From an uncultured Gammaproteobacteria bacterium (GTDB lineage: Bacteria; Patescibacteriota; Patescibacteriia; SBBC01; CAIJZX01), in the NCBI GenBank assembly GCA_964518425.1, contig CAZFGG010000001.1:54597-118596 (forward strand): a DNA stretch of 64,000 nucleotides. Direction: 5' to 3'. Below are positions 3 to 35,425 of the stretch, one piece after another. Within the stretch, counting starts at the first letter, position 1, and each line of letters begins with the position of its first letter. Under the pieces are notes generated by a model. That model saw only the letters and a list, made by a program, of their open reading frames with translations, was not told where the DNA came from and did no database searches. The position numbers were made by a program, and so were the translations under genes.

Positions 3-2425
<2,423 letters not shown>

Positions 2426-2429
<4 letters not shown>

Positions 2430-5192: not shown

Positions 5193-5969
5193 ATGTCATT
5201 CCTGTCCCGAATTCGTCAGGCCACGACCAATGGCGTTGTGCACGTGGGACAAGGAACAACACCGCATCAATCACTCGACAGCCCGAAAGCTTTCCGTCTG
5301 GTCGCCGCGATTGCGGCGGTCACCATCATCGGTAGTGGCTGGCTCGTGGCGCACAGTATCCGGAATGCCACCCGCGCACCAGTTGCTACCGTCACCAATA
5401 ACAGCGCTATCGTTCAACTGAATGCACTGAAGCAAAAAGATACCGACGGTGACGGACTGTCCGACTACGACGAGCTCTTTTCATACCACACCAGTCCCTA
5501 CCTGAAAGATAGTGATGGTGACGGCGTCCCAGATAGTCAGGAGGTAGACAAAGGATCAGATCCGAATTGTCCGCAGGGAAAAATCTGTTCGTCATTTACC
5601 CTGCTGACCTCACCGGTTGACGCTAACGGCAACCTGACCCCAGCTTTCCTGAGACAAGCCCTGAAAGATGCTGGCGTGCCACAAGCTCAACTTGATAAAA
5701 CCGATGACGCGACCCTTCTAAAAATTTATCAAAGCGTCGTTGGTCAGGCACCGGTGACGAATACGAACCAAGTTGCGACCAACACGAATAACACGCAAAA
5801 CACGAATGTTTCTTCCTCGCTCAGCCAGTTCACGAATCTCTCGGCCGCCGATATCCGACAACTTCTCATTAAGAACGGTGTCGATCAGAGTGTTCTGAAC
5901 AGCGTCGACGACGCCACGTTGAAACAAATTTTCCAGCAAGCCTACCAATCCAACCAGACTACTCCGTAA
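5193..5969 (+). CDS. Membrane-anchored/secreted hypothetical protein with DxDGDG Ca-binding-like (thrombospondin type-3-like) motifs and an internal C-terminal duplication
   Basis: N-terminal hydrophobic anchor (AAIAAVTIIGSGWLVA); DTDGDGLSDYDE and DSDGDGVPDSQE motifs; duplicated segment ...LKDAGVPQAQLDKTDDATLLKIYQ / ...IKNGVDQSVLNSVDDATLKQIFQ. Confidence 0.5.
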   Translation: MSFLSRIRQATTNGVVHVGQGTTPHQSLDSPKAFRLVAAIAAVTIIGSGWLVAHSIRNATRAPVATVTNNSAIVQLNALKQKDTDGDGLSDYDELFSYHTSPYLKDSDGDGVPDSQEVDKGSDPNCPQGKICSSFTLLTSPVDANGNLTPAFLRQALKDAGVPQAQLDKTDDATLLKIYQSVVGQAPVTNTNQVATNTNNTQNTNVSSSLSQFTNLSAADIRQLLIKNGVDQSVLNSVDDATLKQIFQQAYQSNQTTP

Positions 5970-5972
5970 GGC

Positions 5973-8900
5973 ATGTCCCGTCGCTCTCGCTTCATCTTCA
6001 TCTTGTTGACCAGCTTCATCCTGCTGGGCCAATTTGGATTTTCCGTTCGACCAGCCCAGGCCATTCTGGGAGTTGGCGATGTAACATTTAACACAACGGT
6101 TGAGGATATCCCTCGTAAAATTGCGGCGACAATAACGAAGGTCACCGACACGCTCAAAGGGAAACTGAAGACGGTGACTGACATCACATTTAAAAATTCA
6201 TTACAGCTCTTCACTAGCCGGTTGCTTCGAGAAGCGGCCACCCAAATCGCGACGGCTGGCCCTGGACAAAAACCACTCTTCCTGACGAATCCGAAGACCT
6301 TCTTCCGAAATGTCGCTAACTCAGCGGCCGGAGATTACATCGATAATTTTACCCGTGGCATTACCGGACAAACCGCGGCCTCGGTCGGCTCAACACGGAC
6401 GCGCTTTCTCATTTCCCGATTCTTGCGATCCTCACTTCCGAACCCGCTCAATTCCTGTCAGGACGATTGTCGAACGAACTACTCCGTCCGTTCGGACTTT
6501 TCACCCGGCGTCAGTAAACGCCCATCCGCGGAAAACGACCACGAAACAAAAATCAACGATGTCTTGGGCGTGTATCAAGACATTAACGGGAGTACCGTGC
6601 AACTTGCCAGTACTGATCCGAATCAACTGATGACTTGCCGCGAGGTCAACACGAAAGTCCCGTTCACCGGCAGTGTCCAACCCTACATTATCTCGCCGGG
6701 ATACCCTGGTACCCAGACCATTCCTCAAATCCAGGCCCAGCAATGTAAAAACCATCAAGAAGAAGCGATCAATAATGAAAAATCTGACGCCTACGCTGAA
6801 ACACTGCAGTGTTACAAAGACTGCCAAAACGGTTTAGCCGGCGTCGCAACCGGGGCCATCAACGCAGCTACGGCGACTGATGTTTTCACCGCAGTCAATA
6901 ACATTGAACCATCAAAAGTTCCTGGCGCTATAGCCAACGCCTTGTCCAACGATAAAAGCGATGTTGGGCAACTCCTTGGTGCGTTTGCAGGTTTAACGAC
7001 GGCCGTTCAAGACCGGATCACGGGTGAACAGACCAACCTCCAGCCGAACGTTCTCCCCCGGACGTCGACGGTCAGCGAGCAAGTCGCGAGTCCAAGCACA
7101 GTTACGACAGCGACCTTCTACGGTTTATTCCAAGTCAGTTCCAACGGCCAGTTTGTCTACACCGGCAGCGGTTTAGCTGACATTCTCAAAGGTATCGCTT
7201 CCTTCATCAATAGCCCGATCGGACAACTCTTCACTCAGTCATTCCGTAACAAGTGTGGCTTCAATCCGGATGCCTGTCGCGGACCGTCCAACCCGCAATC
7301 AGCTATCGGCCAACTCTTATTCGGCACAGGACTGCCGAGCGGCATAGCCGGCGCCCAAATCCAATTATCGTCACTTGGTCAACCGCAGTTGATCAGCGGC
7401 AACCCGGGGCAAAACGACATCCCGGTCACCGACCAACTCTCAACGAACGGTTTAATTGATAGTGGCTTCCGACAGGCTATTGAAGAAGAACTAACCGTTC
7501 AAGAAGCGCTGAATAAAAAACTACTCGATAGCCAGAAAGTTTTCGGCTTTGACCGCAACGGTGTTGAGCCACGAGACGGCTATCCGTATCGAGCCTTGCA
7601 GTACCTCCGAAAGTTCCGGGTGATTCCTGTTGGTTGGGAACTGGCGGCCAAGTACAAACAACAATTTGATAACCGTAACCTGACGCTCGGCAAGCTCGTT
7701 AAGGCTTTCAATATTTGTGGCCAAGACCAGCTTCTGGGAACGTGCACCAATGATCCCACTAGAACGTGCGTGACTAATCCAGACTGCACGTTTACACTGC
7801 CAAGCGGGACACAGAGCACTGGGCAATGTACGAATATCAAATTTTCGGGAACCCACGAAGTCTGCACCAATAATCCGGAGCAGGCCTGTCAGCTCGATGC
7901 CGATTGTGGTGGCGGCACGTGTGGCGCTAGCCCGTACTGTGGGCTCGTCGATCCGAACTGGGTTTTGAAAGCCCCGCAATCGTTCTGTCGACGACAAGGC
8001 GCAGGCGAAGAAATCTTAACCAAAGAATTCGTCTGTGATGAGAACAACGTTAACGGAACAACGAACGCGTCTATTCCACCGGGAACAATAGCACAACAAG
8101 CTGGTGATTCCGGCTCGCCGAATTGTGTTTTCGATGGGACAAATAACCAACATCCCGATATCGGTCACTGGGTAATCAGCCGCAATACCGATACCTGTGC
8201 TGATGTTCAATCGTGTATCGCCGAGAACGATGACGGATCGTGTATTGCCTACGGATACTGCGTTCAAGAGCGACAAACATTCAAGTTTAGCGGAACGCAG
8301 TGCGACGCTCAGAACGTTTCCTGTACAGCCTATACCGATAGTCAAGGCCAACCGCGAAGTTACCTGGCCAACACCCTTGATTTTCGGAATTGCACGGCCG
8401 ACAACGCTGGTTGTCAGTGGTACTGTCATAAGGTCTGCAGCGACGACCCTTCTCGATCCTGTAGTGTCGATGTCGATTGTGCTACTGGTAGCGGTACAAA
8501 TACGGCCACTTGTACCGGAGGATTTGATGCGAGTACGAACAGTTGGCTCTGCGCTGATCCGACTCTCGCGAACACTCCGGCCACCAACCCAACGATCAAC
8601 TTCACGAATAAAGTTGCGAAATGTGACCAGACGCAAGCTGGTTGCCAACAATACCTGCGAACGACCAATGGCACCAATCTCTTACCGAATAGCGGTTTCG
8701 AAGTCATCACCAATGGTGTCCAGGTTGGCAGCGGGGCTGACGCGATTTATGCCGACTGGCAGAATAGCAGCGGACTCCACGCGGTCCCAGTGACACCCGA
8801 TGACCCATTGATCACAGCCAACAACAGTGTCGCGGTGAACCTCAGCGGCTCAGGGGTGATCAGTCAAACGATAGATACCGGTGCCCATATCTACGAACAG

Positions 8901-11609
8901 ACGTTCACGGCCAGCGTTCGTGCCAAAGCCGCGGCTGCTTGTACCACCCGCCTCATTGTCAGCACGAATCTCGGCGGGAGCAACGTTTCATCCGACCAAA
9001 TGAGCGTCACGACCGATTGGCAGACATTTACGACAACCCTGGTTCTGCCGACGCAGCTCCAAGCTGGTACGGCCGACGACGGAAAAGTCGGCGTGGCCAT
9101 CCAAGTCGGAGGGTGCGCGAATCTCATTATCGATAACGCCCAACTCGAGCACGATGGACCGACGACCTATAAAGATTACGGCGCCATCAACGCTACCTAT
9201 CTCGGGGCCAAGCGCCAACAGTGCACCAAGGAAGATGTCGGCTGCCAACTCTACACCCCAACCGATGGCTCGCCCGCGGTGCCTGGACAAATTCTCAATA
9301 GCAATCGCTGCGACGCGCAAAACGTCGGTTGTAACCTCTACCACCTTGAACCGATCACGACGGTCCCCAAACGCAGCGGCGGAGATGTCACGGTCGTGGC
9401 GACCAAGGGCGAACAGTGCAGCGCCTCTGACGTCGGCTGCGAAGAATATACCAACCTTGATGAGGTGGCGAAAGGCGGCGAAGGGAAAGCCTACTTCAAA
9501 TCGGTGAAACAGTGCGTCAAGCCGAATGGCGACCCGGTCGTTGCCCCGCAGCAAACCTACTACACCTGGGTTGGAGATCCGAAAGCGGGATTTGTGCTCC
9601 GCGCCTATGACTTATTGAAATCAAATCTCGACGGAAACCCCTGCACGAATCTGACCGTTGGAACGGTTGGCACAACCCCGGCTTGTGATGATGCGAACCG
9701 ACCCGACCCGCAAAGCACCCTGTGCAATGCCTCGACCTTCGCTACGAACCCTGACTGTGGTCAGTACTATGATTCCAGTTTGAATGTCTACTACCGTTTG
9801 CGCCAAGCAACGGTCTCGGTCACGCCGGATTGTCATCCTTTCCGAAATACCATTGACCAGGATGATCAGAACGCTAAGAACAATATTTACTACCTGGCGC
9901 CGGAAGAAAATGTCAGCTGTTCAGCCGCCGCCGCTGGCTGCCGGGGCTACACCGGTAATGCGGCCCAGACGAGTCGACAAATTTTCCGCGATGATTTTGA
10001 AACCGCGACAACCAGTAACTGGGTTGGTGGCAGTATTTCCTCGGCCTCAATCAGTTTGGGCGGACATTCCATGCACATCCCTGGTAATAGCGCCGCCTAC
10101 CTGACGACAGCGGCGGTCAAAGGTAAACTTTTCAAGGGGAAGACATACCAGGTGACGCTCTTAGCTGCCGCGGCCAGCTCAACGGCGCCGCAACTCGGTG
10201 TCTGGCTTGGTCCGGTGACGAACGGAAAATTTGATGGTATTACGCCTTTCCAGCGCGATGCTAACGGGAATCCATTGACGGTCACGCCAACCTACAGTTC
10301 CTCGATTACGCCGCCTGGTCCCGAGTGGCACACCTATTCGTTTGGCCTTCTCACACTGACCCGCGATCCGACGAGCCTGACGCTTGGTCTGACTGTTGAT
10401 GGCGGTGACGCCTTCGTTGATAATGTTACCTTAACGGAAATCAACGACAGTCTCTACTTGGTGAGTTCGACAGTCCCGGCCTGTCCGGCCAGCGAGGTTG
10501 GTTGTGCCGCCTACACTGATCGCGATGGAAATACGGTCAACCTTAAATCATTCAGCCGGATCTGCTCGGAACAGGCCGTGAACTGTGAAGCCTTGATTGA
10601 CACGCACAACAGTACGTCGCCTGACGCCGAAACGATTAAAAATATTAGTACGCCGGCTGACAACGTCGTCCAAGTCGTCAATGATCCGGCCGTCAGTTGC
10701 CAAGCCGAAGCTAAGGGCTGTCAGGCCGTGGGCTTGCCAACCTACAATACCGACCACCTCCTGACGGGGTACCAGACGACGTATTTGAAAAATAACCCTG
10801 ACCTCTACTCGACAAACCTCTGTACGGATGGACGGAATGGAACACCGAACGAGCTCTTCTGCAGCGCCTACTCAACCTCGAGCGGGACAGTGGCTTTCTT
10901 CAAAGATCCAACCAATCAGACGTGTGAATTCCGAACGGATAATTCCACAGCTGGGGGACAATGGTATGTCACGGGAACAACGACCTTATGTCCGACGGTC
11001 ACGCCGCCTGAAGTCGGACGACCAGTCGGCGCGTCATGCACGCCGACCTGCGACGGGGGCCAGCGACTAGGCCGGGCCTGCGTCTCGAACGCTGACTGCC
11101 CGAGTGCAAAATGTACTGGCGACGCTGCGACGACCGGGCGGATTAATGACGGCTCCGGCAAAGCAATTATTGGTCAGTGCGGCTCGGATAGCAATTGCTT
11201 GGGCGGTAATAAGTGTCTGTACCAGGTTGGGACCTGTCCAGCCGAACAGAATTCCTGTACCGAATACCGCGACCCCACTGATCCAAAGAGTTGCCGCTCG
11301 GAATGTCCACTTGTTCAACAAGGGGGCAGCGCGGTCTTCGTAGACAGCACCTGTACCCCGACGGTCTGTCAGGGTGGCGACCAGGCGGGCAAAGGTTGCC
11401 AAACGAGCACCGATTGCAGCGGCGGAGGACAATGCGTTGGATTTGGCAGCACCCCGGCACTCGGCGCCCCTGGTTGCCGGCCATATTACTACCTGAGCTC
11501 GAGCGTCGAAGACACGGCCAAAGAGTGTAATGGCCAGGTCAACTTAGCTACCGGTTGCCGTCCATTCAATGATACCTTAAACCCAGTCCTTAACTTCCGC
11601 GGCCAATGA
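5973..11609 (+). CDS. Giant (1878 aa) secreted cysteine-rich surface protein, hypothetical
   Basis: Signal peptide MSRRSRFIFILLTSFILLGQFGFSVRPAQA; uninterrupted 5.6-kb ORF; >=10 copies of a C-x5-(G/S)-C-x-x-Y motif in C-terminal half; 3 nt after upstream stop. Confidence 0.7.
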   Translation: MSRRSRFIFILLTSFILLGQFGFSVRPAQAILGVGDVTFNTTVEDIPRKIAATITKVTDTLKGKLKTVTDITFKNSLQLFTSRLLREAATQIATAGPGQKPLFLTNPKTFFRNVANSAAGDYIDNFTRGITGQTAASVGSTRTRFLISRFLRSSLPNPLNSCQDDCRTNYSVRSDFSPGVSKRPSAENDHETKINDVLGVYQDINGSTVQLASTDPNQLMTCREVNTKVPFTGSVQPYIISPGYPGTQTIPQIQAQQCKNHQEEAINNEKSDAYAETLQCYKDCQNGLAGVATGAINAATATDVFTAVNNIEPSKVPGAIANALSNDKSDVGQLLGAFAGLTTAVQDRITGEQTNLQPNVLPRTSTVSEQVASPSTVTTATFYGLFQVSSNGQFVYTGSGLADILKGIASFINSPIGQLFTQSFRNKCGFNPDACRGPSNPQSAIGQLLFGTGLPSGIAGAQIQLSSLGQPQLISGNPGQNDIPVTDQLSTNGLIDSGFRQAIEEELTVQEALNKKLLDSQKVFGFDRNGVEPRDGYPYRALQYLRKFRVIPVGWELAAKYKQQFDNRNLTLGKLVKAFNICGQDQLLGTCTNDPTRTCVTNPDCTFTLPSGTQSTGQCTNIKFSGTHEVCTNNPEQACQLDADCGGGTCGASPYCGLVDPNWVLKAPQSFCRRQGAGEEILTKEFVCDENNVNGTTNASIPPGTIAQQAGDSGSPNCVFDGTNNQHPDIGHWVISRNTDTCADVQSCIAENDDGSCIAYGYCVQERQTFKFSGTQCDAQNVSCTAYTDSQGQPRSYLANTLDFRNCTADNAGCQWYCHKVCSDDPSRSCSVDVDCATGSGTNTATCTGGFDASTNSWLCADPTLANTPATNPTINFTNKVAKCDQTQAGCQQYLRTTNGTNLLPNSGFEVITNGVQVGSGADAIYADWQNSSGLHAVPVTPDDPLITANNSVAVNLSGSGVISQTIDTGAHIYEQTFTASVRAKAAAACTTRLIVSTNLGGSNVSSDQMSVTTDWQTFTTTLVLPTQLQAGTADDGKVGVAIQVGGCANLIIDNAQLEHDGPTTYKDYGAINATYLGAKRQQCTKEDVGCQLYTPTDGSPAVPGQILNSNRCDAQNVGCNLYHLEPITTVPKRSGGDVTVVATKGEQCSASDVGCEEYTNLDEVAKGGEGKAYFKSVKQCVKPNGDPVVAPQQTYYTWVGDPKAGFVLRAYDLLKSNLDGNPCTNLTVGTVGTTPACDDANRPDPQSTLCNASTFATNPDCGQYYDSSLNVYYRLRQATVSVTPDCHPFRNTIDQDDQNAKNNIYYLAPEENVSCSAAAAGCRGYTGNAAQTSRQIFRDDFETATTSNWVGGSISSASISLGGHSMHIPGNSAAYLTTAAVKGKLFKGKTYQVTLLAAAASSTAPQLGVWLGPVTNGKFDGITPFQRDANGNPLTVTPTYSSSITPPGPEWHTYSFGLLTLTRDPTSLTLGLTVDGGDAFVDNVTLTEINDSLYLVSSTVPACPASEVGCAAYTDRDGNTVNLKSFSRICSEQAVNCEALIDTHNSTSPDAETIKNISTPADNVVQVVNDPAVSCQAEAKGCQAVGLPTYNTDHLLTGYQTTYLKNNPDLYSTNLCTDGRNGTPNELFCSAYSTSSGTVAFFKDPTNQTCEFRTDNSTAGGQWYVTGTTTLCPTVTPPEVGRPVGASCTPTCDGGQRLGRACVSNADCPSAKCTGDAATTGRINDGSGKAIIGQCGSDSNCLGGNKCLYQVGTCPAEQNSCTEYRDPTDPKSCRSECPLVQQGGSAVFVDSTCTPTVCQGGDQAGKGCQTSTDCSGGGQCVGFGSTPALGAPGCRPYYYLSSSVEDTAKECNGQVNLATGCRPFNDTLNPVLNFRGQ

Positions 11610-14600
11610 CACGTTTTATCCAATCGCTCTCGTCACGAATCGCCCTCAGCGGAGTATCCGTGGTGATCATGGTTTTCCTGGCCCTCCATCTTTCACCGGT
11701 TGCTTGGGGTGCGCCGATATGTCTGGCTGGAGACTGCTCGGGAGGGGAAGTGTGTGTTTCAACCCAAGGCTGCGTGGCCATTAGCATGTCAGTCAACACC
11801 ATCGTGACGGCCACAACAGTTGGATACAACGTTGATGTGAATGGCGTTGATCCATGGACGCTCTACGCCTGCCTCGGGCCCCGTACGGTCTGCGACACCA
11901 AACCGCACTCGGATACAAATTTTTGGAAGCAGGTTGGTGCCGTCGACCTCAAGACGAAGTTCGCGGTTTATAACGTTCGTCCGGGTAAGACCTATACTGC
12001 TTCACTCTTTGTTCAAACCGATCCAACCACAACGCTTGAACAGGAAGCCACGGCCACGACCTGGCCAGCTTTTCCCGCCCCTCCGACAATCAGCAACATT
12101 GGCCAGAATACAGCCACGATTAATTGGGCGCTGCCATTCTCAGCCGATTCAAAAGTGCGTTATGGTATTTTCCCCCAAGACTGGCAAAGTGAATATTCTT
12201 TGCCAGCCGGACAAACATTCTCAGCCGTCGCCGGGCTCAGTTCGGGAAAATCCTGGGCCGTTGGCCAAAGTGGCGCCATTGTGAATCGAACTATTTCGGG
12301 CTGGCAAGTACAAAATAGTCAGACGACCGCTGATCTCATCACGATTGATGGCTACGACGATAATTCTTTATGGGTCGCGGGAAAAGCCGGAGTAGTGCTC
12401 CGTACAACGAATGGGGGCGGATCCTGGGATTCACAAAGCGCACTCTATTCAAACCCAGCCGATGATATTTATGGCATCAGTACCTCAACCGACTCGACGG
12501 CCTGGATTGCTGGTACTCAAGGGGTCCACTTTTTTGACGGCAGCCTGTGCCAAACACGAACACCGCCAGTCTCCGGTTCTTTCTATTCAGTCTTAACCCT
12601 CAATAATCATGAAGTGTGGGTTGGAGGCAGCACCGGCAAGGTCTATCATACTATCAATGGTGGAACGATCTGGACGACGCAAAACACCGGAGGAGCTGGT
12701 ACCATTAATACTTTAGCTAGTCTTGATGGTAAAACGATTTGGGCTGGAGGCGCGAACGGTGGACTCTGGCGCTCAACTGACAGCGGGCAAACGTGGTTGA
12801 CGATGACGACGGGTACGGCGCAGCAAATAAATAGCCTATCCATGCTCTCACCATCGGAAGTCTGGTTCGGAGCCGCAAATGGAATAGGTAGTTCAACGAA
12901 TGCCAATGGTGCAAACCCTACATTCACGTTTGACGCGAGCGTCCTCGGCGCAGTCCCGTCTGTACAGAGCATTGCCTTCGCGAATGGATCAAGTCTGATT
13001 GCCGTTGGCCAGAATAAGCTGGGGGCCTATCGCTGTCACTCGAGTCCGACCTCGTGTGCGAATGTTCAAAGCGATTCAAATATTATTGTTCCGCCCAGTA
13101 GCCATAGCGTTCAACTCAACGGTCTATCGCAAGGCCAGCCATACTTTTTCTCGGTCGAATCCGTTGGTTCGGGAGTCGGCTGGGGAGCTTTTGGAACATT
13201 CATGACCGGCCAACCGGATACTATTCCTCCCGTGACCGCCTTTATCAATCCACCCTCTCCCGGCCCGACGTATACGAATACCACGCCATTCGCGGTAACT
13301 GGGACAGCCAGCGATACCCCGCCTGGTTCCGTCCAGAGTGTCACGTTAACAAAAAACGGCACACCGCAAAGCGTCAGCGGTACGACCTCGTGGTCATCAA
13401 ATGTGGCTCTATCACCTGGCCTGAACGCCTTGGTGGCGACGGCGACTGATGGCGGCAGCAATACCGCCACCGCCAATAGCAGTCTCTTCTACGACGCGAC
13501 AAAGCCAGTAGTTTCTATTACTGCACCGACCAACGGCTCAACAGTCAATACCAATCCTTTTAACGTTACCGGAACCTCAACCGATAATGCGGCCAACGAC
13601 TCGGGCCTAGCCTCCATTGTGATGACGGTGAATGGTGGAAGCCCACAAAGTATTGCGGTCGCGGCCGGTACGGGATCATTCAACTGGAATGCTTCAGCCA
13701 GCCTCAACGTTGGATCGAACACCGTCGCCGTCACGGTCGCTGATCGAGCGGGGAACACGCAAACGACTCAAGTGACCTTCACCTATGTTGCCCCGAGTTT
13801 TAATCTGACTGTGACCCCGGCCAGCCAAACAGCATTTTCTGGAGATATTGTGACCTACACCGCAACGCTGACTTCGCAAAATGGCTTTGCCGGCTCGGTC
13901 AATTTGTCGGCCGTTGTTGCCCCCGGCGGCCCGACCGTCTCATTCAGTCCAAGTGTTGTTACCTTGACTGCCGGTTCAACGGCTACGAGCACCCTGACGG
14001 TTGCGACGGCCGGCGCTAACGGGAATACGTATACGATCACCACGACCGCTACCGGCGGTAGTGTTACAAAAACAGCCAGCGTCCAACTCATTCTCAAGGC
14101 TGCTCCTGACTTCAGCATCTCCGCCACCCCCTCGCCGCTGAGTATCATCGCCGGACAATCAGGTAGCTACACGGTCACCGTGTCGGCCAATAATACGTTT
14201 GCTGGACCAATCACCTTTTCAGTTACCGGTATCCCATCGAATGTGACCGGAACATTTAGCCCCCCCTCAGTTACCTTAGCGAACTCTCAAATTACGACGG
14301 TCAGTCTCAATATCGTGACCCAAGCCACTGCGGCCAATGGTGATTACCCATTAACCATTACCGGTAACGGAACGAATGCCGCCAACGGCCAGATTATCAC
14401 GCCCGCGCCAACCACATCAGTCATTCTCCATATCAGTCCAGCTCCGGATATTGGCCTCAATTTTACGCCAGCCAGCCAAACGGCTAATGCCGGAGGATTA
14501 GCGGTCGTGTACTCGGGGACCGTCACAAGTATGAACGGTTTTGGAGGAACGGGGACGCAGGTCAACCTGACGGTGACGAGTGATTATGCAGGCTCTGGTT

Positions 14601-15757
14601 TAACCATGACGCTCCAACCAAACCAAGTCATTCTCGCTTCAGGTGATGTCAAAACGACAGCCTTGAATGTCATCGTGGCCAATAGTGTTCCGGGTGGTAC
14701 GTATCATCTGACAGTCACGGCCAGTGGCGGCAGTGTCACGAAGCAAGCCACTGTCAACCTGGTCGTCAATGAAGATACCTCTCCACCGATCATCACGAAT
14801 ATCGTGCCCACGCCGAACTTCGATCGTGTCCGCATTACCTGGACGACGGATGAACCGGCGAACTCGGCCATAAAAATCTATACGGATGTCGCCCGAGCTA
14901 ATCAATATGGACAGAACGAGACGCTCAGCACATTCTGCACCTCCGCTTGCCATGATTTGGTCTACGCGACCTTGGCGCCATTGACGACCTACTACTTCAC
15001 CGTCACCTCAACTGATACCGATCCTACGCCCGGTGGACCGCGGACGACGATCGCTACGACCGATGCCAGCGGAAACCCTTTGCAGTTCACGACACTCGAC
15101 ACTCCAGACACGACCCCTCCGGATGTTACCCTCGTGACGCCGGCTGATCAGACGACGGTCACTGGGAATACTGATGTCACTGGGCACGGCCATGATGATA
15201 AGAAAGTTGATCATATCAAGCTGGCCATTGATAACCTGACCCCTGGCACAACGGAGCCGCCGATCGCCACAACTATTGGATGTAGCGGACAGGACTGCGA
15301 TTATTCGTATACCTGGAACACTGGCGCCTTCGGTGCCGCCGGAAATGGTGTCCACACGGTCACGGTCACCGCTGTTGATGGTGCTGGCAATCCATCCTCG
15401 CCAGTCACGCACACGGTCACCGTCGACAATGACTTCACCGACCCACAGCTGACCAGCGGACCAGACGCCATTAATCTTGTCTGCACGACGACTTGCAAGA
15501 TCACGATCGTCTGGACGACCGATGACCAGTCGACGAGCGAAGTCGGCTACGATACTCCTGTTCCGCAGTACTGCGATCCAGTCTCGGGCGCCTGTACCTA
15601 CAGCCAGCATCAAGCCTACGACGATGCCGCCCCGAGTGATTCGTCACCAGCGTATACCAGCCATAGTGTTACCTTAACGAACCTCAACAAGAACGTTCTC
15701 TACCATTATCGCGTCTTCAGCTGTAATAAAACTGGCCGCTGCCTGCAAAGTGGCTAA
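11606..15757 (+). CDS. Giant (1383 aa) secreted protein with BNR/Asp-box repeats and multiple Ig/FN3-like beta-sandwich domains
   Basis: ATGA overlap with upstream gene; signal peptide; BNR-like SxDxGxTW repeats (TTNGGGSWDSQ, TINGGTIWTTQ, STDSGQTWLTM); repeated about 95-aa T/S-rich Ig-like modules (e.g. FNLTVTPASQTAFSGDIVTYTATLTSQNGFAGSVNLSAVV). Confidence 0.7.
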   Translation: MTRFIQSLSSRIALSGVSVVIMVFLALHLSPVAWGAPICLAGDCSGGEVCVSTQGCVAISMSVNTIVTATTVGYNVDVNGVDPWTLYACLGPRTVCDTKPHSDTNFWKQVGAVDLKTKFAVYNVRPGKTYTASLFVQTDPTTTLEQEATATTWPAFPAPPTISNIGQNTATINWALPFSADSKVRYGIFPQDWQSEYSLPAGQTFSAVAGLSSGKSWAVGQSGAIVNRTISGWQVQNSQTTADLITIDGYDDNSLWVAGKAGVVLRTTNGGGSWDSQSALYSNPADDIYGISTSTDSTAWIAGTQGVHFFDGSLCQTRTPPVSGSFYSVLTLNNHEVWVGGSTGKVYHTINGGTIWTTQNTGGAGTINTLASLDGKTIWAGGANGGLWRSTDSGQTWLTMTTGTAQQINSLSMLSPSEVWFGAANGIGSSTNANGANPTFTFDASVLGAVPSVQSIAFANGSSLIAVGQNKLGAYRCHSSPTSCANVQSDSNIIVPPSSHSVQLNGLSQGQPYFFSVESVGSGVGWGAFGTFMTGQPDTIPPVTAFINPPSPGPTYTNTTPFAVTGTASDTPPGSVQSVTLTKNGTPQSVSGTTSWSSNVALSPGLNALVATATDGGSNTATANSSLFYDATKPVVSITAPTNGSTVNTNPFNVTGTSTDNAANDSGLASIVMTVNGGSPQSIAVAAGTGSFNWNASASLNVGSNTVAVTVADRAGNTQTTQVTFTYVAPSFNLTVTPASQTAFSGDIVTYTATLTSQNGFAGSVNLSAVVAPGGPTVSFSPSVVTLTAGSTATSTLTVATAGANGNTYTITTTATGGSVTKTASVQLILKAAPDFSISATPSPLSIIAGQSGSYTVTVSANNTFAGPITFSVTGIPSNVTGTFSPPSVTLANSQITTVSLNIVTQATAANGDYPLTITGNGTNAANGQIITPAPTTSVILHISPAPDIGLNFTPASQTANAGGLAVVYSGTVTSMNGFGGTGTQVNLTVTSDYAGSGLTMTLQPNQVILASGDVKTTALNVIVANSVPGGTYHLTVTASGGSVTKQATVNLVVNEDTSPPIITNIVPTPNFDRVRITWTTDEPANSAIKIYTDVARANQYGQNETLSTFCTSACHDLVYATLAPLTTYYFTVTSTDTDPTPGGPRTTIATTDASGNPLQFTTLDTPDTTPPDVTLVTPADQTTVTGNTDVTGHGHDDKKVDHIKLAIDNLTPGTTEPPIATTIGCSGQDCDYSYTWNTGAFGAAGNGVHTVTVTAVDGAGNPSSPVTHTVTVDNDFTDPQLTSGPDAINLVCTTTCKITIVWTTDDQSTSEVGYDTPVPQYCDPVSGACTYSQHQAYDDAAPSDSSPAYTSHSVTLTNLNKNVLYHYRVFSCNKTGRCLQSG

Positions 15758-15763
15758 ACGACT

Positions 15764-18700
15764 ATGGTGACCCGACCCTCAACTCATAAACGATTCACGC
15801 TGATTTTCTTGGCGGTGGCTTTAGCCGTGATGAGTTACGTTCGATCATCATCAGCCCAAACCAGTGGTCCTCAAATTACCTCGATCACTGTCTCGAATGT
15901 TTCCTCGAATAGCGCCGACATTGGCTACACCATAAACCCAGCGGCGGGCAGTCGGATTGTTTACGATTTGTCCGCTCATGCCCAAGCAAGTGACTATCAG
16001 TTTGCCTGCGACGGTAATGCCTGCGGAATCCCGCCCTCGTCGGCCACCTACACTGCCGATGTCACCAGTAACGTCCTGACGATTACCGGCCTTCAGATCA
16101 GCACCACGTATCATTTCCGCATCGAGGCAAAAAACGCCAATGGTACGACCGCCAGCGCCGATCGCACCTTCGCCACAACTGGCGCTGGCGGTGGCGGAGC
16201 AAGCGTGACCATCACCGACATTAGCTATAGCTGTGACGGATCTCAGTGCCGAGTCGGATTTAGTACCAATATTGACGCTATCGTTGAGGTTCGTTGGATG
16301 GATAACGCGGCGTACCAGGCCAATCCGCCGGCTGATTGTGATAGCTACCCAAATTCGACTGCCGAATCCACCGCGGCCAAAGGCCTGCGATCATTGCTCG
16401 TTGCTGCGCCGGGGCAACCAAAGTTAGCTCTGGATACGAAATATCATTATTGTATCAAGGCCACGGCTGGGGCCAGCCAATCGCATACCAATGACCTGAT
16501 CTTACAGACGCCAATTTCTAGTTCTGACCACACCTTCTCGACCGGGGCTTGCCCGGATGGAACGGCCATTGGTTCGTGTAACAAGGATCGGAAATATTGT
16601 GATAACAACGGTATTCTTGTCACGAGCTGTACATCAATCTGCGGCTTGATTTGCCCGAGTAATTCGACCTGTAACCAAAGCGGGCAATGCGTTGTCGATC
16701 CAACCCTAGGGACTTCGCCATACCAGTGTAATCAAGCCAGCTGCTATAACAAGAATGGACAACTCATCATTCCGGCTCCATCCGGCTGCTATGCCTCCTG
16801 GCCGCGATGTAACGCCAATACTATTTTGAAGGTCCGGAAAGACCGGGGATGTAACCTCTGGCTGACCTGCTCAACGAGTCTTCAGACCGAACCGACGGCT
16901 AACGCACCAGCCGAAAACCTCTGTCTGAGCCTGGCGGCTTGTAATAGTTTAGGGATCGAAGGTCAATGTAATAAATATCTTCCCCAAGGGCAGTGCAGCA
17001 ACGATCCGTTACGTTTCTGTTCGTCCGATACCGACTGCTTGGCCGGCGGAACGTGTAATATCTCGCCGACGGAGAACCCGACGAAGACATTACAGAACAT
17101 CACCTATCAGACGCCGGAAGACATCAGCCATATTGCCGACCTGTCTGGAAATGTTATTGCTGGCCTGGACTGGCACCAGCAAGGCGGCTCCAATGTTATC
17201 CAAGGATTCTTGCCATGGCAACTCATGCGCCAAGTTGGTGGCAACGCCGAATTGAAGAATGGAGACTTCGAGTACAATCCGCCGAGCGTTAGCCCGTGGG
17301 AAGTCGCGCCGCTAGCGAAGAATGGCGATAATCCAGGCTCAACATCAATCAACATTGATTTTGAAGACCGTGACAACAGCATCAATCATGTCTTAGTCGT
17401 CAGCCCGGTCGTGGAGAGCGCGCTAGCCACAAAACACTGTCAGGTAACGACGTATGCTAGTGGCGCGCAACAAGGCAAACCAGTTGACTGCAGCGCAACG
17501 GATAGCGTTTGTACCGCCGCCAACGATCAATGCGTAACCGATACGACAAATGTTAAGTTCTCGGGCGCTGTTTCAGGAACATTCACCGCGGCCCCATCAG
17601 AATATTACTATGCCGAAGCTCGGATTAAATCTCCTTCCGGCAACCCGCGCGTTCGTTTCCAATTTGGCTACGCCGGATATACGAAATTTAACGTCCCCAA
17701 TGGAAGCGGCTCAACGAATACCTTTGTCGACGTTCCGGTAACGAATGCCTGGCAACGGGTAACACTAGGCCCACTGAATGGCATGTCCGGTGAAACTCGA
17801 TTTGGCGCAGTCTGTGCGGAGACCGATCCAGCGACCTGCAGCACCTTCTGGCTGGATGATGTTCAAATCCGACCGGTCCTTCAGGTCGACACGAACCCCA
17901 CGTTCATCACGCCGAGCTGCCGGCTCTACCCGAAAGATGACTCACCGTCATGCGATTACGTCGATCAGAACAATGTCGTCTACAAAGGCTGGCATGGTTA
18001 CTGCCTTGAACACGATTCACAAACCGGGACCTGCTTATCCTGGTGGCCAGTTGATATCATCAAAGGTGAATCGAATGTCTTCGGCGCGGACACACCGGCT
18101 GGATATAAAGACCGGGCTCCGTTATTCATGTGTGCCGAAGCAGCCGGGTTGAATGGCTTAAATGAATTTGATGTTTCCAAGTCGTACACCGCGGGATTTG
18201 ATTACCAAAACTTCGTCGCATTTTCTCCGGCTTCCGGAAACTGTGACTCGGCAAAGGCCTCCCATTTCACCATTGCCACCTGCACTCGTGACGAGTCTGG
18301 AAATTTATTACCAATCTGGTTTGTCAAACAGGGCGCTAATCGGGCTGATGCCGGGATATCAATGGACCAGATCGTCAGCATTCATTGGAATTCGGTTGGA
18401 CAGTTCGCATCCGAGAATCCAACGTTTGTCGTTCATAATAACGATGCTCTGCGCGGCTCGACAGCATTAAGTCCAGCAGAAACCGGAACGGATGGAGGTC
18501 ATGATTGGAGAATATGGCAGAGTGTTGATGCAGCGGCCAATGAAACATCCTGGATTTTTTCTAACGTTACTCCGTGTCAGCGCGTCGGATTGAGTAATGG
18601 GGGACAAAACTGCGTCTACGGCGGGATCGTCTTTGATTCAACAACGAAGTTAGTGAAGCGGTACGAGCTGATCGAAAATGACCGCACCGATGGTGTCGAT

Positions 18701-20128
18701 GGGACAGGCGTTGCTGAGCCCGCCACATATCAGGTGGTTTTCGACCTTAAAGAATCATGCAGCACGTTAGTTGAGGTCGTCGACCCACAGGGTGATAACC
18801 AAGCCTTTGCCTCGCGAATTAATTCTTCTTCATACCAAGTACCGAACCTCCAGTATGGGAGTGGTGCCGATTTGCCACCCTACGGAGGAGCCGTTGCTCC
18901 GGCCAATGGGAACGCGTTACCAGTTGATTGGCCGCTCTTACCGATCGTCAAGCCCGATTATGTTACGTTTACACCGCCGGGCCAAGCTCGGGGAGGATCA
19001 CCATATGGCTGCAAAGGAAAATGTGATGCCTTGGTCTGCACAACCAACCCAGCCAATACTTGCTCAACACCCCAGCTCATTGACCAGTGTCAACATCCTG
19101 ACCCGACCTCAAATATTCAGCCGGGGGATTGTACCGGCACCGGCAGTGGGTTCAATGGTTCGAATCTTGGAGTCCAGAAATATACGGCGGCAGACCAGTT
19201 GACCACGGATAAACAATATTTTGCTCAAGAGCGCATCCGGCGTATCTTTGCGGCTTCGTTCGGTATTTACGCCTGGGACGCCACGTCACAAAAGTATGTC
19301 CTCTCGGGCGCCCATTTTGATAGCCCTACCCAAGTCTGCCCAGTCCAACAAGTTGCAGGACTTTGTGCCACGGTTTCCGCTACATGTAACGCCACAGCAC
19401 CCGTGACGGGTAACGGCACGTCGGCTCAGGCCGCCAAGGATAATGCGAAGTCCAAATGCCAACAAATCGTGGCCTGCGATGGGACCAAAGCCGAATGCCC
19501 GAGCAGCGGCGATCAATTAAAATACAACGACATTGCTTCCCCAACGTGCAGTGGCAGCGGTACGAACTTTACCTGTACAGCAAGCTGCATCTTTGACCAG
19601 GGTACGAATACCTATAGCAAGGCTACCACCGTTACACAGCCAGGCGGCCCGCGACCCGTCCGCCCAGCCTATCCAAATGACTTTTGTGCGGTTCCGCCGA
19701 CAGTCAGTGGATCCGCCTTCCTGAATTCGCCCGCCACGACTGCTACGATCGATAGTGGCAGTGGCACCGTCGGGATTAAGTTCAATTCCAACGCTGATGC
19801 CGACCAGGTCCCGCTGCGAACCATCAGCATTGACTGGGGTGATGGTCCGGCCTTGTCGTATAGTTACACCTTCGCCCCTCGGAACGATCCATCGAAACCA
19901 CATATCTTTGCTCACCCCTATGTGATCGGCGGAACCCCATCACCTGGATCATCCTGTGGCACTGACAGCAGTGGTCGCTTCGTCTGCGCGTATCATATTA
20001 AGATTCAGGTCCAAGACCATTGGAACTGGTGTAGCGATACCAAAACCGATGCCAGCTCGGTCAAGAATTGCAGTACCAATTCAGCCAACTGGTTCGACAC
20101 CGGCTTGACGGTCAAAGTCGCGCAATAG
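15764..20128 (+). CDS. Giant (1454 aa) secreted protein with N-terminal FN3-like domain and Cys-rich regions
   Basis: Signal peptide MVTRPSTHKRFTLIFLAVALAVMSYVRSSSA; FN3-like segment (SGPQITSITVSNVSSNSADIGYTINP...YHFRIEAKNANGTTAS); many paired cysteines. Confidence 0.7.
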   Translation: MVTRPSTHKRFTLIFLAVALAVMSYVRSSSAQTSGPQITSITVSNVSSNSADIGYTINPAAGSRIVYDLSAHAQASDYQFACDGNACGIPPSSATYTADVTSNVLTITGLQISTTYHFRIEAKNANGTTASADRTFATTGAGGGGASVTITDISYSCDGSQCRVGFSTNIDAIVEVRWMDNAAYQANPPADCDSYPNSTAESTAAKGLRSLLVAAPGQPKLALDTKYHYCIKATAGASQSHTNDLILQTPISSSDHTFSTGACPDGTAIGSCNKDRKYCDNNGILVTSCTSICGLICPSNSTCNQSGQCVVDPTLGTSPYQCNQASCYNKNGQLIIPAPSGCYASWPRCNANTILKVRKDRGCNLWLTCSTSLQTEPTANAPAENLCLSLAACNSLGIEGQCNKYLPQGQCSNDPLRFCSSDTDCLAGGTCNISPTENPTKTLQNITYQTPEDISHIADLSGNVIAGLDWHQQGGSNVIQGFLPWQLMRQVGGNAELKNGDFEYNPPSVSPWEVAPLAKNGDNPGSTSINIDFEDRDNSINHVLVVSPVVESALATKHCQVTTYASGAQQGKPVDCSATDSVCTAANDQCVTDTTNVKFSGAVSGTFTAAPSEYYYAEARIKSPSGNPRVRFQFGYAGYTKFNVPNGSGSTNTFVDVPVTNAWQRVTLGPLNGMSGETRFGAVCAETDPATCSTFWLDDVQIRPVLQVDTNPTFITPSCRLYPKDDSPSCDYVDQNNVVYKGWHGYCLEHDSQTGTCLSWWPVDIIKGESNVFGADTPAGYKDRAPLFMCAEAAGLNGLNEFDVSKSYTAGFDYQNFVAFSPASGNCDSAKASHFTIATCTRDESGNLLPIWFVKQGANRADAGISMDQIVSIHWNSVGQFASENPTFVVHNNDALRGSTALSPAETGTDGGHDWRIWQSVDAAANETSWIFSNVTPCQRVGLSNGGQNCVYGGIVFDSTTKLVKRYELIENDRTDGVDGTGVAEPATYQVVFDLKESCSTLVEVVDPQGDNQAFASRINSSSYQVPNLQYGSGADLPPYGGAVAPANGNALPVDWPLLPIVKPDYVTFTPPGQARGGSPYGCKGKCDALVCTTNPANTCSTPQLIDQCQHPDPTSNIQPGDCTGTGSGFNGSNLGVQKYTAADQLTTDKQYFAQERIRRIFAASFGIYAWDATSQKYVLSGAHFDSPTQVCPVQQVAGLCATVSATCNATAPVTGNGTSAQAAKDNAKSKCQQIVACDGTKAECPSSGDQLKYNDIASPTCSGSGTNFTCTASCIFDQGTNTYSKATTVTQPGGPRPVRPAYPNDFCAVPPTVSGSAFLNSPATTATIDSGSGTVGIKFNSNADADQVPLRTISIDWGDGPALSYSYTFAPRNDPSKPHIFAHPYVIGGTPSPGSSCGTDSSGRFVCAYHIKIQVQDHWNWCSDTKTDASSVKNCSTNSANWFDTGLTVKVAQ

Positions 20129-20129
20129 T

Positions 20130-23100
20130 ATGAAACGATTTCTTTCACGCTTGCGCCGAATCCCCCATCGCTGGGCGCTGTTGAGTAGCCTGGTTATCGT
20201 CGTAGTACTCATAGTTATTTGGCCGAGTCCGGCCCGGGCTGATGTTCAGCAGGTCATCTTCAGTGATATCTTAAGCCCGATCGTGACGGCCATGATCCGG
20301 CTCTTCGCCTTATTGACCGCCTACATCGTCGGACTCCTCATTCTCGTCGCCCAACAAAATAATTTCATCAATTCCGCGCCCGTCGTGACGGGCTACCCGA
20401 TCGTCCGCGACTTAGCGAACATGATCTTCATTATCGCTTTGTTGATTATTGCCGCCGGTACGATTCTACGCTTAGAGAATTACCGCTACAACCGCTTGCT
20501 CGGCCGGCTGATTGTCATGGCGTTCTTGGTCAACCTGGCGCGCTTCATTACCGGATTCTTCATTCAAACCTCGCAGGTGTTCATGCTGACGTTCGTCAAT
20601 GCGTTCAAAGACATCGCCCTTGGTAACTTTGCCAACATGTTCGGCTTAGATGTGGTCTTGAAATTCAGCCAACAGAACCCGACGGCGACAGATGCCTCGT
20701 TATTCATGACCTTGGTTGGCGGCCTGGCCATGATGATTATCGCCTTCTGTGTCATCTTAGCCGTTGTCGTCATCCTGATCGTCCGGATCGTGGCCTTATG
20801 GATATTGACCATCTTATCGCCGCTGGCCTACGCCTTACGCATTATCCCGAACACCGAACGGTATGCTTCCCAGTGGTGGAGCGAATTCGGAAAGTACGTC
20901 GTTTCCGGTCCGGTCCTGGCCTTCTTCCTCTGGCTGGCACTTGCCTTGAGCGCCGGTTCGGCCAACCAAAGTAGTGTCCTTTTCCAGAGCGTCAACGGCA
21001 CGAGCGGCGCGAATGCCAATCTCACGAATCAGGTCCAACAGCAACTCGCTCCGATTCAGAAGGATTTTGTCACGGAGATTTTCTCGATGCCCCGGCTGAT
21101 GACCTTCATCGTCTCGATCATTTTCCTGATGATGGGTATGCAGTACGCCAGTAAATCGGGCGGCGCGGGAGCCGGATTTGCGAAAAGAATATATGAGAAA
21201 GGACTTGGTGTCGGCGCGACGGCTACTGGGTTGAACGCTATCCGCAGCCAAATCAACGAACGAGCGGTTGCTCCGGTTCAAGGCTGGATTAAAAACCGTC
21301 AGGCGGCTCGGCAAGGGAGGATTCAGGAACGAACGGCGGCCCTCGAGTCGGCCGGCGCCCGTATTCGATCGCAGGCCCCGGTCATGCCCGGTATTCTTGG
21401 CCGCGAAGGCCGCGAACGGGCAGCCGCGAGTGCCCAGAATATTGAAGGACAACGGACCCAGCAATTCATCCAATCCCGCGGTTTACAGAATTTGCCGCAT
21501 GACGACGTTATGACTCGTTTCTTGACGACGACCGGTCGCGAACAATTAGCGGCCATGACGGTCTTAAAAGACCGCGGGCGGATTAATCTCCAAGACCCCA
21601 ACCAAGAAAAAGCCTTCAACCAGGCTATGGCCTGGAACCGTGTCCCAGAAGGCGATCGCCTAAAGATGCGTGAGGAGATTTTTCGATCCAATATGGGAGG
21701 TATGGATGAGAATAGTATTCGCGCCCGCCTGGGAGCTTCAACCGATCCGGAACAGCGGATCCAATTTGCTCAAGAGCTCCAGCGCCGGCAACTGTTAAAA
21801 GTAGGACGAGCCGAAGATGAACAAATTTCAGCCGGACTGCTGAACGATTTGGCGGCTAACCCGGAACGGTTGCAAGCTGCTCGTGAATCAATGATGAAAA
21901 CCAATCCGGACATGGCAAAAAAAGTCATCTTCGGGAGCCTAGCGGATTCATCAAGTCGGAGAGCGTTCTTGAGCGCCATTCAACAGAAGCAAATGAACCC
22001 GTCGGCTTTAAATCATGCAGTTCAAGATACTTTTGCCCGAGCGGGTGAAGCTGCCGCAATAGGTAATTTCCTGAATCAAATCAGCCCGGATGCAGAGACG
22101 CTGAATTCGTATAGACGTCAGATGGATCCAGAAGCGGCTCAGGAAATTTTCAGTCACCTCACGATTGCCGATGATGCTTCAGCTGAAGAACGGCAGAAAG
22201 TTGCCCGTGTAACAGGAGAATGGGGCAAGGCATTTACGCAATCCAATGGCACCTTCTTAACCGCAAAAAACTCTGATGGCACATCAAAGAAAAATTCTGA
22301 TGGAAGCGATGTCACACTTGCACAAGAGTTTGCCAGCAAACTAGGTGGAGAAGAAATCAGTAAGAATATTTCTCTGCAAGCTCTGAAAGATCAGAATGTC
22401 TTACAGTCCTTGAGACGATCAGATAATATGAAGGCCTCTCATTGGGAAGCCCTTCGCAAACGGAATAAGGAAACACGTGCGGCGCTTGAGGAAGGTTTGA
22501 AAGGTTATGCTGATCACCTGGGTGCCGAGGCTTATGATAAGCAAGGAAATATTATTCTGGATCTCGAGAAGCTCGGGGGGAATGAAGATCGCTTTAAAGA
22601 AAATGAATTTGTTGTTCGTAACTTGATGTTGGCTAGTAAAGGCAAAGAGAATCGGTACAACTTGGCTGATGAGAAAGCCCGCCAAGCGTTTGAGCGCTTA
22701 GTCAGCGGTGCCAGCGCTGCAGACTTAAGTGACATAACAAAGTCGCCAGTTTATGCGGCTCATACTGATACCGTTAATCTCCTCTTTGGTTGGAAGGGAA
22801 AGATGAACGAGGTAGCTGAAATGTTAACCGAAAACTATCAGTTTGCGGTGGACGCCATGAAAGAAACGGAAAAAACACTGACTGAAAAAATCAAAGCTGG
22901 CGGTCGAGAAGGAAGTATTGCCTACAACCGACTGAAAGAGATGTCCAAGCATCCAATTTTGAGTAATTATATTGCCTACCCTGAAAAGCCATCAGAAGGA
23001 GGAGGTAAGGGAGGTACGGCAGCGGCAGCTGCTGCTGGGGTAGCGGCGGGGGTAGCGGGTATGGCCGCTGCTGGTGGTATGGGAGGAAGTAGCCAGCCAG

Positions 23101-28803: not shown

Positions 28804-29283
28804 ATGCCTAACCAATTCGTCGTACCACAATTTATCGACGTCGAGGATAAAATTCTCGGACCAATTTCCGTTCGCCAGTTTATTATCGTCTTAACCGGTA
28901 CGGGCTTGGTGGTTGGCGCTTACCAGATCCTCTACAAGCTGGCGAATCAGTTCATTCTCTTTATCGTCAGCGCCCTGGGTATCCTGGCCGGTGTCCTGAT
29001 GTTCGCCTTTATCAAGGTCAACGGGCGACCGTTTCACCTCTTCGTCCTCAACCTTCTCCAGTCAGTCAAAAACCCCCATCTTCGTATTTGGAATAATCAA
29101 ATGGCCGAAATATTGCAATATCGGAAAGAGCCGCCCCCGCCACCTCCGCTGCCCTTAAAACAACCACTGACGAAAACAAATCTGGCAAAATTGGCGTTGC
29201 TGGTTGATACTGGCGGGGCCTATCACGAAGACGACGATCTGCTCTACATCGGCCAACCTCTCGCCCCCTCACCTCCACGTTAA
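28804..29283 (+). CDS. Small two-TM membrane protein, PrgI/VirB3-like (T4SS)
   Basis: 159 aa; N-terminal PQFIDVEDKILGPISVRQFIIVLTGTGLVVGAYQI + second TM LFIVSALGILAGVLMFAFIKVNGRPFHLF, the PrgI-family pattern; located directly upstream of VirB4-like ATPase as in Gram-positive conjugation loci. Confidence 0.45.
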   Translation: MPNQFVVPQFIDVEDKILGPISVRQFIIVLTGTGLVVGAYQILYKLANQFILFIVSALGILAGVLMFAFIKVNGRPFHLFVLNLLQSVKNPHLRIWNNQMAEILQYRKEPPPPPPLPLKQPLTKTNLAKLALLVDTGGAYHEDDDLLYIGQPLAPSPPR

Positions 29284-29286
29284 ATC

Positions 29287-35424: not shown

Positions 35425-35425
35425 T

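Follow-up and report, generated by a model that had tools for sequence, protein, structure and literature searches.

The stretch analyzed here, 64,000 nucleotides (nt) of contig CAZFGG010000001.1 (the window), encodes a putatively exported protein of 1878 amino acids (aa), termed giant protein 1, which carries a short cysteine motif, C-x5-[GS]-C-x-x-Y, in eleven copies in its C-terminal part. The motif is enriched and conserved, its two Cys behave as a pair, the part of the protein that contains it has undergone an internal duplication and includes two domains with folds like those of carbohydrate-binding modules (CBMs), and the gene is linked to genes of a type IV secretion system (T4SS). Giant protein 1 is probably a stalk or an adhesin that is stapled by disulfides, displays modules for glycan binding and works together with the T4SS of Patescibacteria, although this reading is well short of certain.

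Copies and internal duplication of the cysteine motif

An earlier note on this DNA had quoted ten peptides with the motif, and all ten were indeed present in the open reading frame (ORF) of giant protein 1. In these copies the first of the two Cys is found at aa 777, 807, 884, 1084, 1113, 1149, 1316, 1504, 1576 and 1755 (nt 8301..11273). The frequency of the motif was compared with 2000 shuffles of the region from aa 561 to the end. C-x5-[GS]-C was observed 10 times, compared to a shuffle mean of 0.67 and a maximum of 5, and the version with an additional aromatic residue at +3 was observed 9 times, compared to a mean of 0.05 and a maximum of 2. This corresponds to an enrichment of 15-fold to 180-fold. 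The residue at +3 was Tyr in nine of the ten copies. One more copy, the eleventh, was found at aa 1531 (CSEQAVNCEAL); Gly precedes the second Cys at this place in most orthologues. The consensus over 338 aligned units was C-[SPT]-A-x-x-[VA]-G-C-x-x-[YF]-[TR]-[DN], with Gly or Ser before the second Cys in 94% and Tyr or Phe at +3 in 86% of the units. The start-to-start spacing had been given as about 50-130 aa, but the measured values were 27-45 aa inside the blocks described below and 77-200 aa across inserted domains.

With 4.4% Cys and 9.3% Gly in giant protein 1, the motif might be thought to be a chance outcome of a Cys/Gly-rich composition. The low copy numbers in the shuffles refuted this explanation, and each copy is conserved column by column among the homologues. 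In addition, the idea that the Cys-rich neighboring protein giant 3 shares the motif had to be rejected, because no copy is present among its 63 Cys, and none was found elsewhere in the six-frame translation of the window. Therefore, the motif is not a by-product of Cys-rich composition, and the probability of a chance origin is practically negligible. A recent DNA duplication or an assembly artefact was also rejected, because the DNA identity of the tandem copies of block B (9208-9452) is just 60-70% over 50 nt, indicating that the duplication is old.

The copies are organized in three blocks of three copies each (A, B and C) and in single copies. In block A a variable insert with four Cys (aa 818-860) separates copies 2 and 3. 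Block B is the most conserved part of the giant 1 family, and its hidden Markov model (HMM) also matched aa 773-838 (independent E-value 3e-7) and aa 1498-1584 (independent E-value 6e-8) of giant protein 1, in both cases in register. Analysis with hhalign revealed that block A is homologous to block B (Prob 95.9, E 5.5e-9) and that the same is true for block C (Prob 94.3, E 1e-7). The homology extends further, i.e., aa 868-1190 and aa 1300-1600 could be aligned over 252 columns (Prob 97.4, E 9e-12), and the correspondence was colinear: copy 3 was aligned with copy 7, the first CBM-like domain with the second, and copies 4, 5 and 6 with copies 8, 9 and 10, respectively. The BLASTP results agreed with this internal duplication. 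Thus, the C-terminal 1100 aa contain a duplicated supermodule, loop-CBM-loop-loop-loop, and have the order [loop loop][loop-CBM1-loop loop loop] X [loop-CBM2-loop loop loop] ... loop. The earlier note had seen the motif as decoration of a beta-rich stalk. This view has to be replaced, because the loops are themselves the connector modules, and their three homologous triple-loop blocks bracket the two CBM-like sandwiches.

The most invariant stretch of the family, GCEEYTNLDEVAxGGEGKxYFKxVKQC (window 9435-9524, aa 1155-1184), was the search pattern that recovered the 116 species loci described below. It has a predicted local distance difference test score (pLDDT) below 50 in both structural models, and it may be an interaction site, a metal or Ca site, or a processing site. 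Giant protein 1 also contains a second type of Cys module, C-x6-9-C-x5-(D)C-x4-12-C, e.g., CTNDPTRTCVTNPDC...C and CDGGQRLGRACVSNADCPSAKC. It is present several times and comes and goes as a unit among orthologues. One example is a 22-aa insert, GSSCTVSSDCPTGSTCTAGKCS, between motif copies 5 and 6 of the orthologues P0020 and P0021, and additional copies are found in P0003 and P0030.

Pairing of the two cysteines and predicted fold

Co-variation of the Cys residues was analyzed with 183 proteins and with 273 ORFs from loci of the family, the latter with a minimum length of 400 aa. All of these sequences were aligned to two HMMs, one for block B and one for the whole protein. In the segment from -3 to +10 around each motif exactly two Cys were present in about 90-100% of the 140-244 unique variants. 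Copy 5 was found in two mutually exclusive forms, C-x6-C in 267 rows and C-x3-C in 126 rows; none of the complete rows had both Cys 52 and Cys 55, and a single complete row lacked both. In copy 8 about half of the variants had longer loops of differing length, always with two Cys, and in copy 3 some variants had a shifted Cys, again with two Cys retained. Joint loss of both Cys was observed in three cases at copy 11 and in one case each at copies 2 and 4. It was also observed for a separate C-x6-C loop in the N-terminal half, C428/C435: both Cys were present in 51 homologues, neither in 84, and a single one at these two columns in 0.

This joint keeping, shifting and loss of the Cys pair speaks for a disulfide within the same 8-residue loop, and neither for a knot nor for a metal site of fixed geometry. 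The paired behavior itself is directly visible in the alignments; the loops would probably be oxidized in vivo. Of the small disulfide knot that the earlier note had proposed, the disulfide-sized loop with local pairing was thus retained, and the knot was given up in favor of a single disulfide in an 8-residue loop.

The copies commonly occur in adjacent pairs or triples and the habitat is often anoxic, and both features would also fit Cys pairs that are metal ligands, e.g., in Zn, Fe or Cu sites built from two neighboring motifs, and that do not form disulfides. This is very unlikely, however, because giant protein 1 is predicted to be exported, the motif contains no His, Asp or additional Cys ligands, and each block has an odd number of copies, namely three. 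Furthermore, the spacing within the pair varies (C-x3-C, C-x6-C, longer) and yet the pair is kept, which is typical of disulfides.

An AlphaFold2 (AF2) model of aa 738-1878, based on a 31-sequence alignment, had a mean pLDDT of 67.6, and two beta-sandwiches were predicted with confidence in it (aa ~877-1067 and aa ~1337-1487). A second model, covering aa 1-1200 (51 sequences), had a mean pLDDT of 66.4 and was mostly helical at aa 46-470, followed by a well-predicted mixed domain at aa 480-760. In the first model, a three-residue helical turn was predicted for 8 of the 11 motif copies at +2 to +4, between the two Cys, and in 9 of the 11 a strand that bears the Tyr begins at the second Cys or at most two residues past it. 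Seven copies are in segments with a block-mean pLDDT of at least 64. The predicted order of elements is a strand, a helical turn between the Cys and a Tyr-bearing strand; four of the eleven copies were modeled at low confidence.

The models also bear on the question of whether the loop Cys pair with another subunit or another loop, so that intermolecular or swapped disulfides would cross-link a polymer or a sheet. The co-variation reveals mutual dependence, but it cannot separate pairing in cis from symmetric swapped pairing, and the most conserved copy, copy 6, is poorly modeled as a monomer. On the other hand, the loop length within the pair varies while the flanking strands stay, and the AF2 secondary structure sets both Cys at the ends of one short turn. 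Swapped pairing is therefore regarded as highly improbable, and local pairing is the explanation that is followed here.

Comparison of the two sandwiches with the CBM4, CBM22, CBM61 and CBM16 families by Foldseek resulted in a probability of 1.00, a template-modeling (TM) score to the target of 0.6-0.76 and a root-mean-square deviation of about 4-5 Å over 165-185 columns, showing that their jelly-roll fold can be superposed on these families. In addition, PF02018 is precomputed on several orthologues of giant protein 1. The similarity to these families (CBM_4_9, DUF642) thus consists of the same jelly-roll fold in both sandwiches and of weak Pfam matches. In contrast to them, giant protein 1 has scores below the Pfam thresholds and no attached glycoside hydrolase, and the motif is located outside the CBM. 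The other Foldseek matches were low-TM multidomain toxins (Cry, CDTb/Ib) and Elapor1, and only the CBM-type matches were judged to be meaningful; Elapor1 (9vqm) was the top match, but globally poor with a TM score of 0.10-0.13. For the loop blocks and for the helical N-terminal half Foldseek searches of both models against the PDB yielded nothing.

Conceptually closest to the loops are the furin-like, GCC2_GCC3 and TNFR repeats of eukaryotic ectodomains. These repeats, too, consist of small strand-turn-strand units that are stapled by disulfides and contain an aromatic residue as well as a conserved Gly, and they are also arranged in series as thin connectors between extracellular beta-sandwich domains. 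Giant protein 1 does not belong to them: they have two or three disulfides per unit, compared to one in giant protein 1, and the consensus and the spacing differ. In addition, giant protein 1 is bacterial, has no Pfam HMM match to these repeats, and has its triple-loop blocks around CBM-like domains. Another comparison is possible with the antifreeze protein of Tenebrio molitor, a beta-helix with one disulfide per 12-residue coil. It is also built from a short repeat in which each unit is locked by a local disulfide that replaces a hydrophobic core. However, the period of giant protein 1 is 27-45 aa and not 12, the unit is strand-loop-strand and not a solenoid coil, and the consensus is unrelated.

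Distribution of the giant 1 family

A homologue search retrieved 31 full-length relatives of giant protein 1 with 28-68% identity, and the named ones are from metagenome-assembled genomes (MAGs) of Candidatus Kerfeldbacteria. In the alignment of these 31 homologues all motif Cys were invariant or more than 90% conserved, and the repeat is thus conserved. When the N-terminal 547 aa were used as the query of a word-indexed search for homologues, only a single fragment was retrieved.

A profile search of protein sets, as had been suggested, was performed with block B (aa 1066-1184, three copies) against 1.84 billion representative proteins. At E<=1e-3 it matched 1090 clusters (at 50% identity), and with the stricter limit of E<=1e-10 the number was 990. 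With few exceptions the matches were proteins of 1.6-3.4 thousand aa with 2-7 matching stretches per protein. For the 145 new proteins among the matches listed, the medians per protein were 93 for Cys, 13 for C-x6-C pairs and 9 for matches to a looser pattern that was used for counting, C-x5-[GSAN]-C-x2-[YFWLMV]. The source names were 'hypothetical', 'PA14 domain-containing' or 'carbohydrate binding domain-containing' protein of Patescibacteria/Parcubacteria. A scan of GTDB species genomes resulted in 116 confirmed loci. The 80 loci that were kept belong to Kerfeld-, Komeili-, Kuenen-, Nomura- and Buchananbacteria, Microgenomatus and unnamed Patescibacteria. The motif is a hallmark of a very large family of Patescibacteria with at least 1090 clusters, and it is unannotated rather than rare. 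Several third-party-annotation MAGs with the locus (L004, L007, L014, L022 and others) are titled 'uncultured Gammaproteobacteria bacterium', and one (L043) is titled 'Pirellulales bacterium'; these are probably mislabeled records or cases of bin contamination.

The searches of known families showed that the motif is covered by no sequence family of Pfam-A, NCBIfam or the PDB. Pfam-A 2025 at E<=0.1 had no match over the motif segments and only DUF642 and CBM_4_9 over the beta-sandwiches, and NCBIfam r20 had no match on giant protein 1. With the complete protein as query, phmmer found nothing in the PDB except a spurious ferredoxin match (E 0.38), and a PDB search with the block B profile gave nothing at E<=10. 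In the open-access literature no description of the motif or of the giant 1 family was found. The block B profile could be used to annotate more than 1000 'hypothetical' giant proteins, and the triple-loop block (about 120 aa) is a small domain that is apt for structural work and for disulfide mapping.

Gene neighborhood and possible role

Giant protein 1 is predicted to be extracytoplasmic, since a signal peptide with an AQA site is present at its N-terminus and the rest of the protein contains no hydrophobic segment. Its C-terminus is ...NPVLNFRGQ, without an LPXTG. The gene is part of a same-strand run that extends from a TSP3 gene via the genes for giants 1-4 to an ORF of 241 aa, with gaps of -4 to +6 nt (Table 1). 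The TSP3 protein (~260 aa) has an N-terminal membrane anchor and bacterial TSP3 (Ca-binding type) repeats. Its gene is the most constant partner gene, and the TSP3 protein probably serves giant protein 1 as a membrane anchor or partner. Giant 4 has transmembrane-like segments in its first ~340 aa, which are followed by ~850 hydrophilic residues. Its membrane part is conserved, with 32-43% identity across loci, and Pfam yielded no match; it may be an extended or 'missing' VirB6-like component of the Patescibacteria T4SS. In the 83 loci that were compared, LeuRS, Sua5, MFS, KsgA, TSP3, giant 1, giant 3 and giant 4 were each present in 46-83, and the order was constant where they were present. 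Giant 2 was detected in 21 of the 83.

Table 1. Positions of giant protein 1, its modules and neighboring genes in the window
Feature	Position	Strand	Remarks
Giant protein 1	5973..11609	+	1878 aa, 83 Cys; N-terminal signal peptide MSRRSRFIFILLTSFILLGQFGFSVRPAQA, no further transmembrane-like segment; 31 full-length homologues
Separate C-x6-C loop CGFNPDAC	7254..7277	+	aa 428-435, N-terminal half; without Gly/Tyr signature
Second Cys module	7743-7922, 8424-8552, 11037-11216, 11352-11435		aa 591-650, 818-860, 1689-1748, 1794-1821 of giant protein 1
Block A	8289..8678	+	copies 1-3; Cys pairs 777/784, 807/814, 884/891
Motif copy 1	8301..8339	+	CDAQNVSCTAYTD; both Cys kept in 211/211 variants
Motif copy 2	8391..8429	+	CTADNAGCQWYCH
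Motif copy 3	8622..8660	+	CDQTQAGCQQYLR; directly precedes CBM-like domain 1; paired with copy 7 by hhalign
CBM-like jelly-roll domain 1	8679..9170	+	aa ~903-1066; DUF642 23.0 bits vs cut-off 27; pLDDT 80-90
Block B	9168..9524	+	copies 4-6; Cys pairs 1084/1091, 1113/1120, 1149/1156; plus invariant CEEYTNLDEVAxGGEGK...QC
Motif copy 4	9222..9260	+	CTKEDVGCQLYTP
Motif copy 5	9309..9347	+	CDAQNVGCNLYHL; C-x3-C form in distant homologues
Motif copy 6	9417..9455	+	CSASDVGCEEYTN; both Cys kept in 230/230 variants
Motif copy 7	9918..9956	+	CSAAAAGCRGYTG; directly precedes CBM-like domain 2
CBM-like jelly-roll domain 2	9978..10442	+	aa ~1336-1490; CBM_4_9 17.4 bits vs cut-off 25.9; pLDDT 80-94
Block C	10464..10724	+	copies 8-10; Cys pairs 1504/1511, 1531/1538, 1576/1583
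Motif copy 11	11235..11273	+	CPAEQNSCTEYRD; C-terminal Cys-rich region
Small membrane-anchored TSP3-repeat protein	5193..5969	+	ends 3 nt upstream of giant 1; 74/83 loci
Giant 2	11606..15757	+	1383 aa; BNR/Ycf48-like, Big_7 and fn3-like domains; start overlaps giant 1 stop by 4 nt
Giant 3	15764..20128	+	1454 aa, 63 Cys
Giant 4	20130..23720	+	1196 aa, 1 Cys; 8 transmembrane-like segments at N-terminus and large hydrophilic domain
TraC-like/TrsD-like ORF	29204-30028	+	T4SS
VirB4-type ATPase	30040-31962	+	T4SS
Two VirB2-like T4SS_pilin proteins	33072-34160 and 35306-36601	+	flank PD40-like ORF

The linkage to the T4SS was analyzed with a profile of the giant 4 membrane domain, which fetched 80 metagenome loci. 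The 39 loci with at least 10.5 kb downstream were assessable for VirB4, and the 39 loci with at least 6 kb upstream were assessable for giants 1 and 3. Of the 39 loci assessable for VirB4, 28 contained it on the downstream side of giant 4, and the order in the VirB4-bearing loci was fixed: giant 4, a protein of about 400 aa, PrgI, TraC-like, VirB4 and the pilins. In most of the assessable genomes the operon leads directly into the VirB3/TraC-like/VirB4/pilin genes. Giant 3 or giant 1 was present upstream of giant 4 in 32 of 39 loci, and giant 1 and VirB4 were found together in 18 loci. In the individual loci L002 and L085 giant 1 is linked with T4SS genes.

In a survey of Patescibacteria T4SSs, VirB3, VirB4, VirB6, TrsD and VirB2-like genes were reported, but 'no adhesins' and no PrgB homologues (PMC12102498). 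According to reviews, the T4SS is essential in the only species tested, and its function and the host contact are unresolved (PMC11665869, PMC12857230). PrgB of pCF10, an adhesin of monoderm conjugation, is similar to giant protein 1 insofar as it is a large exported protein that is encoded together with a T4SS of the MPF-FATA type and is expected to act in cell contact. However, giant protein 1 has no sequence or domain similarity to PrgB and no LPXTG anchor; Pfam matched no PrgB adhesin or polymer-adhesin domain in it, and it is thus not a protein of the PrgB type.

The proposed mechanism starts from the single unit, C-[SPT]-A-x-x-[VA]-G-C-x-x-[YF]. Its two Cys would form the local disulfide and enclose an 8-residue loop that includes a single helical turn, reversal of the chain would be made possible by the Gly that precedes the second Cys, and the next strand would bear the aromatic residue. 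Eleven such loops, in three homologous triple-loop blocks and as single copies, would bracket the two CBM4/22-like sandwiches. The likely outcome would be a thin, covalently stapled and protease-resistant connector or stalk, which might be rod-like and rigid and would need no large hydrophobic core. Giant protein 1 would be exported via its signal peptide, and its gene would be co-transcribed with those for the TSP3 protein, the further giants and the polytopic membrane protein. It would then most likely serve at the cell surface as a stalk or an adhesin and display to the host cell modules that may bind host glycans; that it acts together with the Patescibacteria T4SS is suggested by gene order only. 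A more specific version is put forward tentatively: the giant 1 family could be the missing host-contact component of the Patescibacteria T4SS, in which the stapled stalk would hold the glycan-binding domains, set the host docked, and act together with giants 2 and 3, the VirB6-like giant 4 and the TSP3 anchor.

Several observations weigh against a stapled stalk that works with the T4SS. The confidence of both models is moderate, and four copies (1, 6, 7 and 11), including the most conserved copy 6, are in segments with a pLDDT below 55. Neither sandwich reaches the Pfam gathering thresholds of CBM_4_9 or DUF642. No gene of the Dsb or VKOR type was found within the 64-kb window, many Patescibacteria inhabit anoxic groundwater, and the total number of Cys in giant protein 1 is odd. 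With respect to the T4SS, loci L003 and L084 contain giant 1 without any T4SS gene inside 10 kb, and the synteny of the locus with LeuRS, Sua5 and KsgA, which are housekeeping genes, is just as strong; therefore, the conserved order alone does not prove a functional link.

The last two points, together with the fact that VirB4 was not found within reach in 11 of 39 loci, favor the main rival explanation. It states that giant protein 1 is stapled as described, but is a general surface or S-layer-like protein for glycan binding or nutrient capture that is independent of the T4SS, and that the adjacency reflects conserved gene order in Patescibacteria. This is rather unlikely, because the genes from TSP3 through giant 4 are on the same strand and overlapping or nearly abutting, PrgI, TraC-like and VirB4 follow directly after giant 4 in those 28 loci that contain VirB4, and giant 4 resembles an extended polytopic membrane component of a T4SS.

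Patescibacteria represent a large share of bacterial diversity and are attached to host cells, and with the giant 1 family a specific candidate for the recognition of hosts is now available. The triple-loop block with C-x5-G-C-x2-Y is a recognizable signature of giant exported proteins with CBM-like domains that head a T4SS cluster. If the link to the T4SS were incidental, it would still be a new and widespread extracellular repeat module. The undescribed module belongs to the extracellular repeats of bacterial surface proteins that are stapled by Cys, and it is of particular interest because of its phylum-wide spread and its position at the head of the Patescibacteria T4SS cluster.

Additional observations were made in the remaining parts of the window. 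The VirB2-like pilins are unusually long (362 and 431 aa) and contain 11 and 9 Cys, and the PD40/beta-propeller-like ORF between them has 415 aa. The ORF calls in this region overlap (35306 vs 35424), and the true starts are uncertain. The LeuRS ORF (window 156-2429) has a NUDIX match (aa 193-312) inserted after the editing domain, which begins at aa 34, and the catalytic part that is normally found at the N-terminus is apparently absent or encoded at another place. The LeuRS of locus L003 has a Ser_hydrolase/Abhydrolase insert instead of NUDIX, so that the inserted domains of LeuRS appear to be variable. An ORF of 696 aa at 54767-56857 ends in a pretoxin-HINT domain of the polymorphic-toxin type. 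It is followed by an ORF of 452 aa and then by one of 1410 aa, without Pfam matches (58225-62457), and by PilM of a type IV pilus at 62588-63652.

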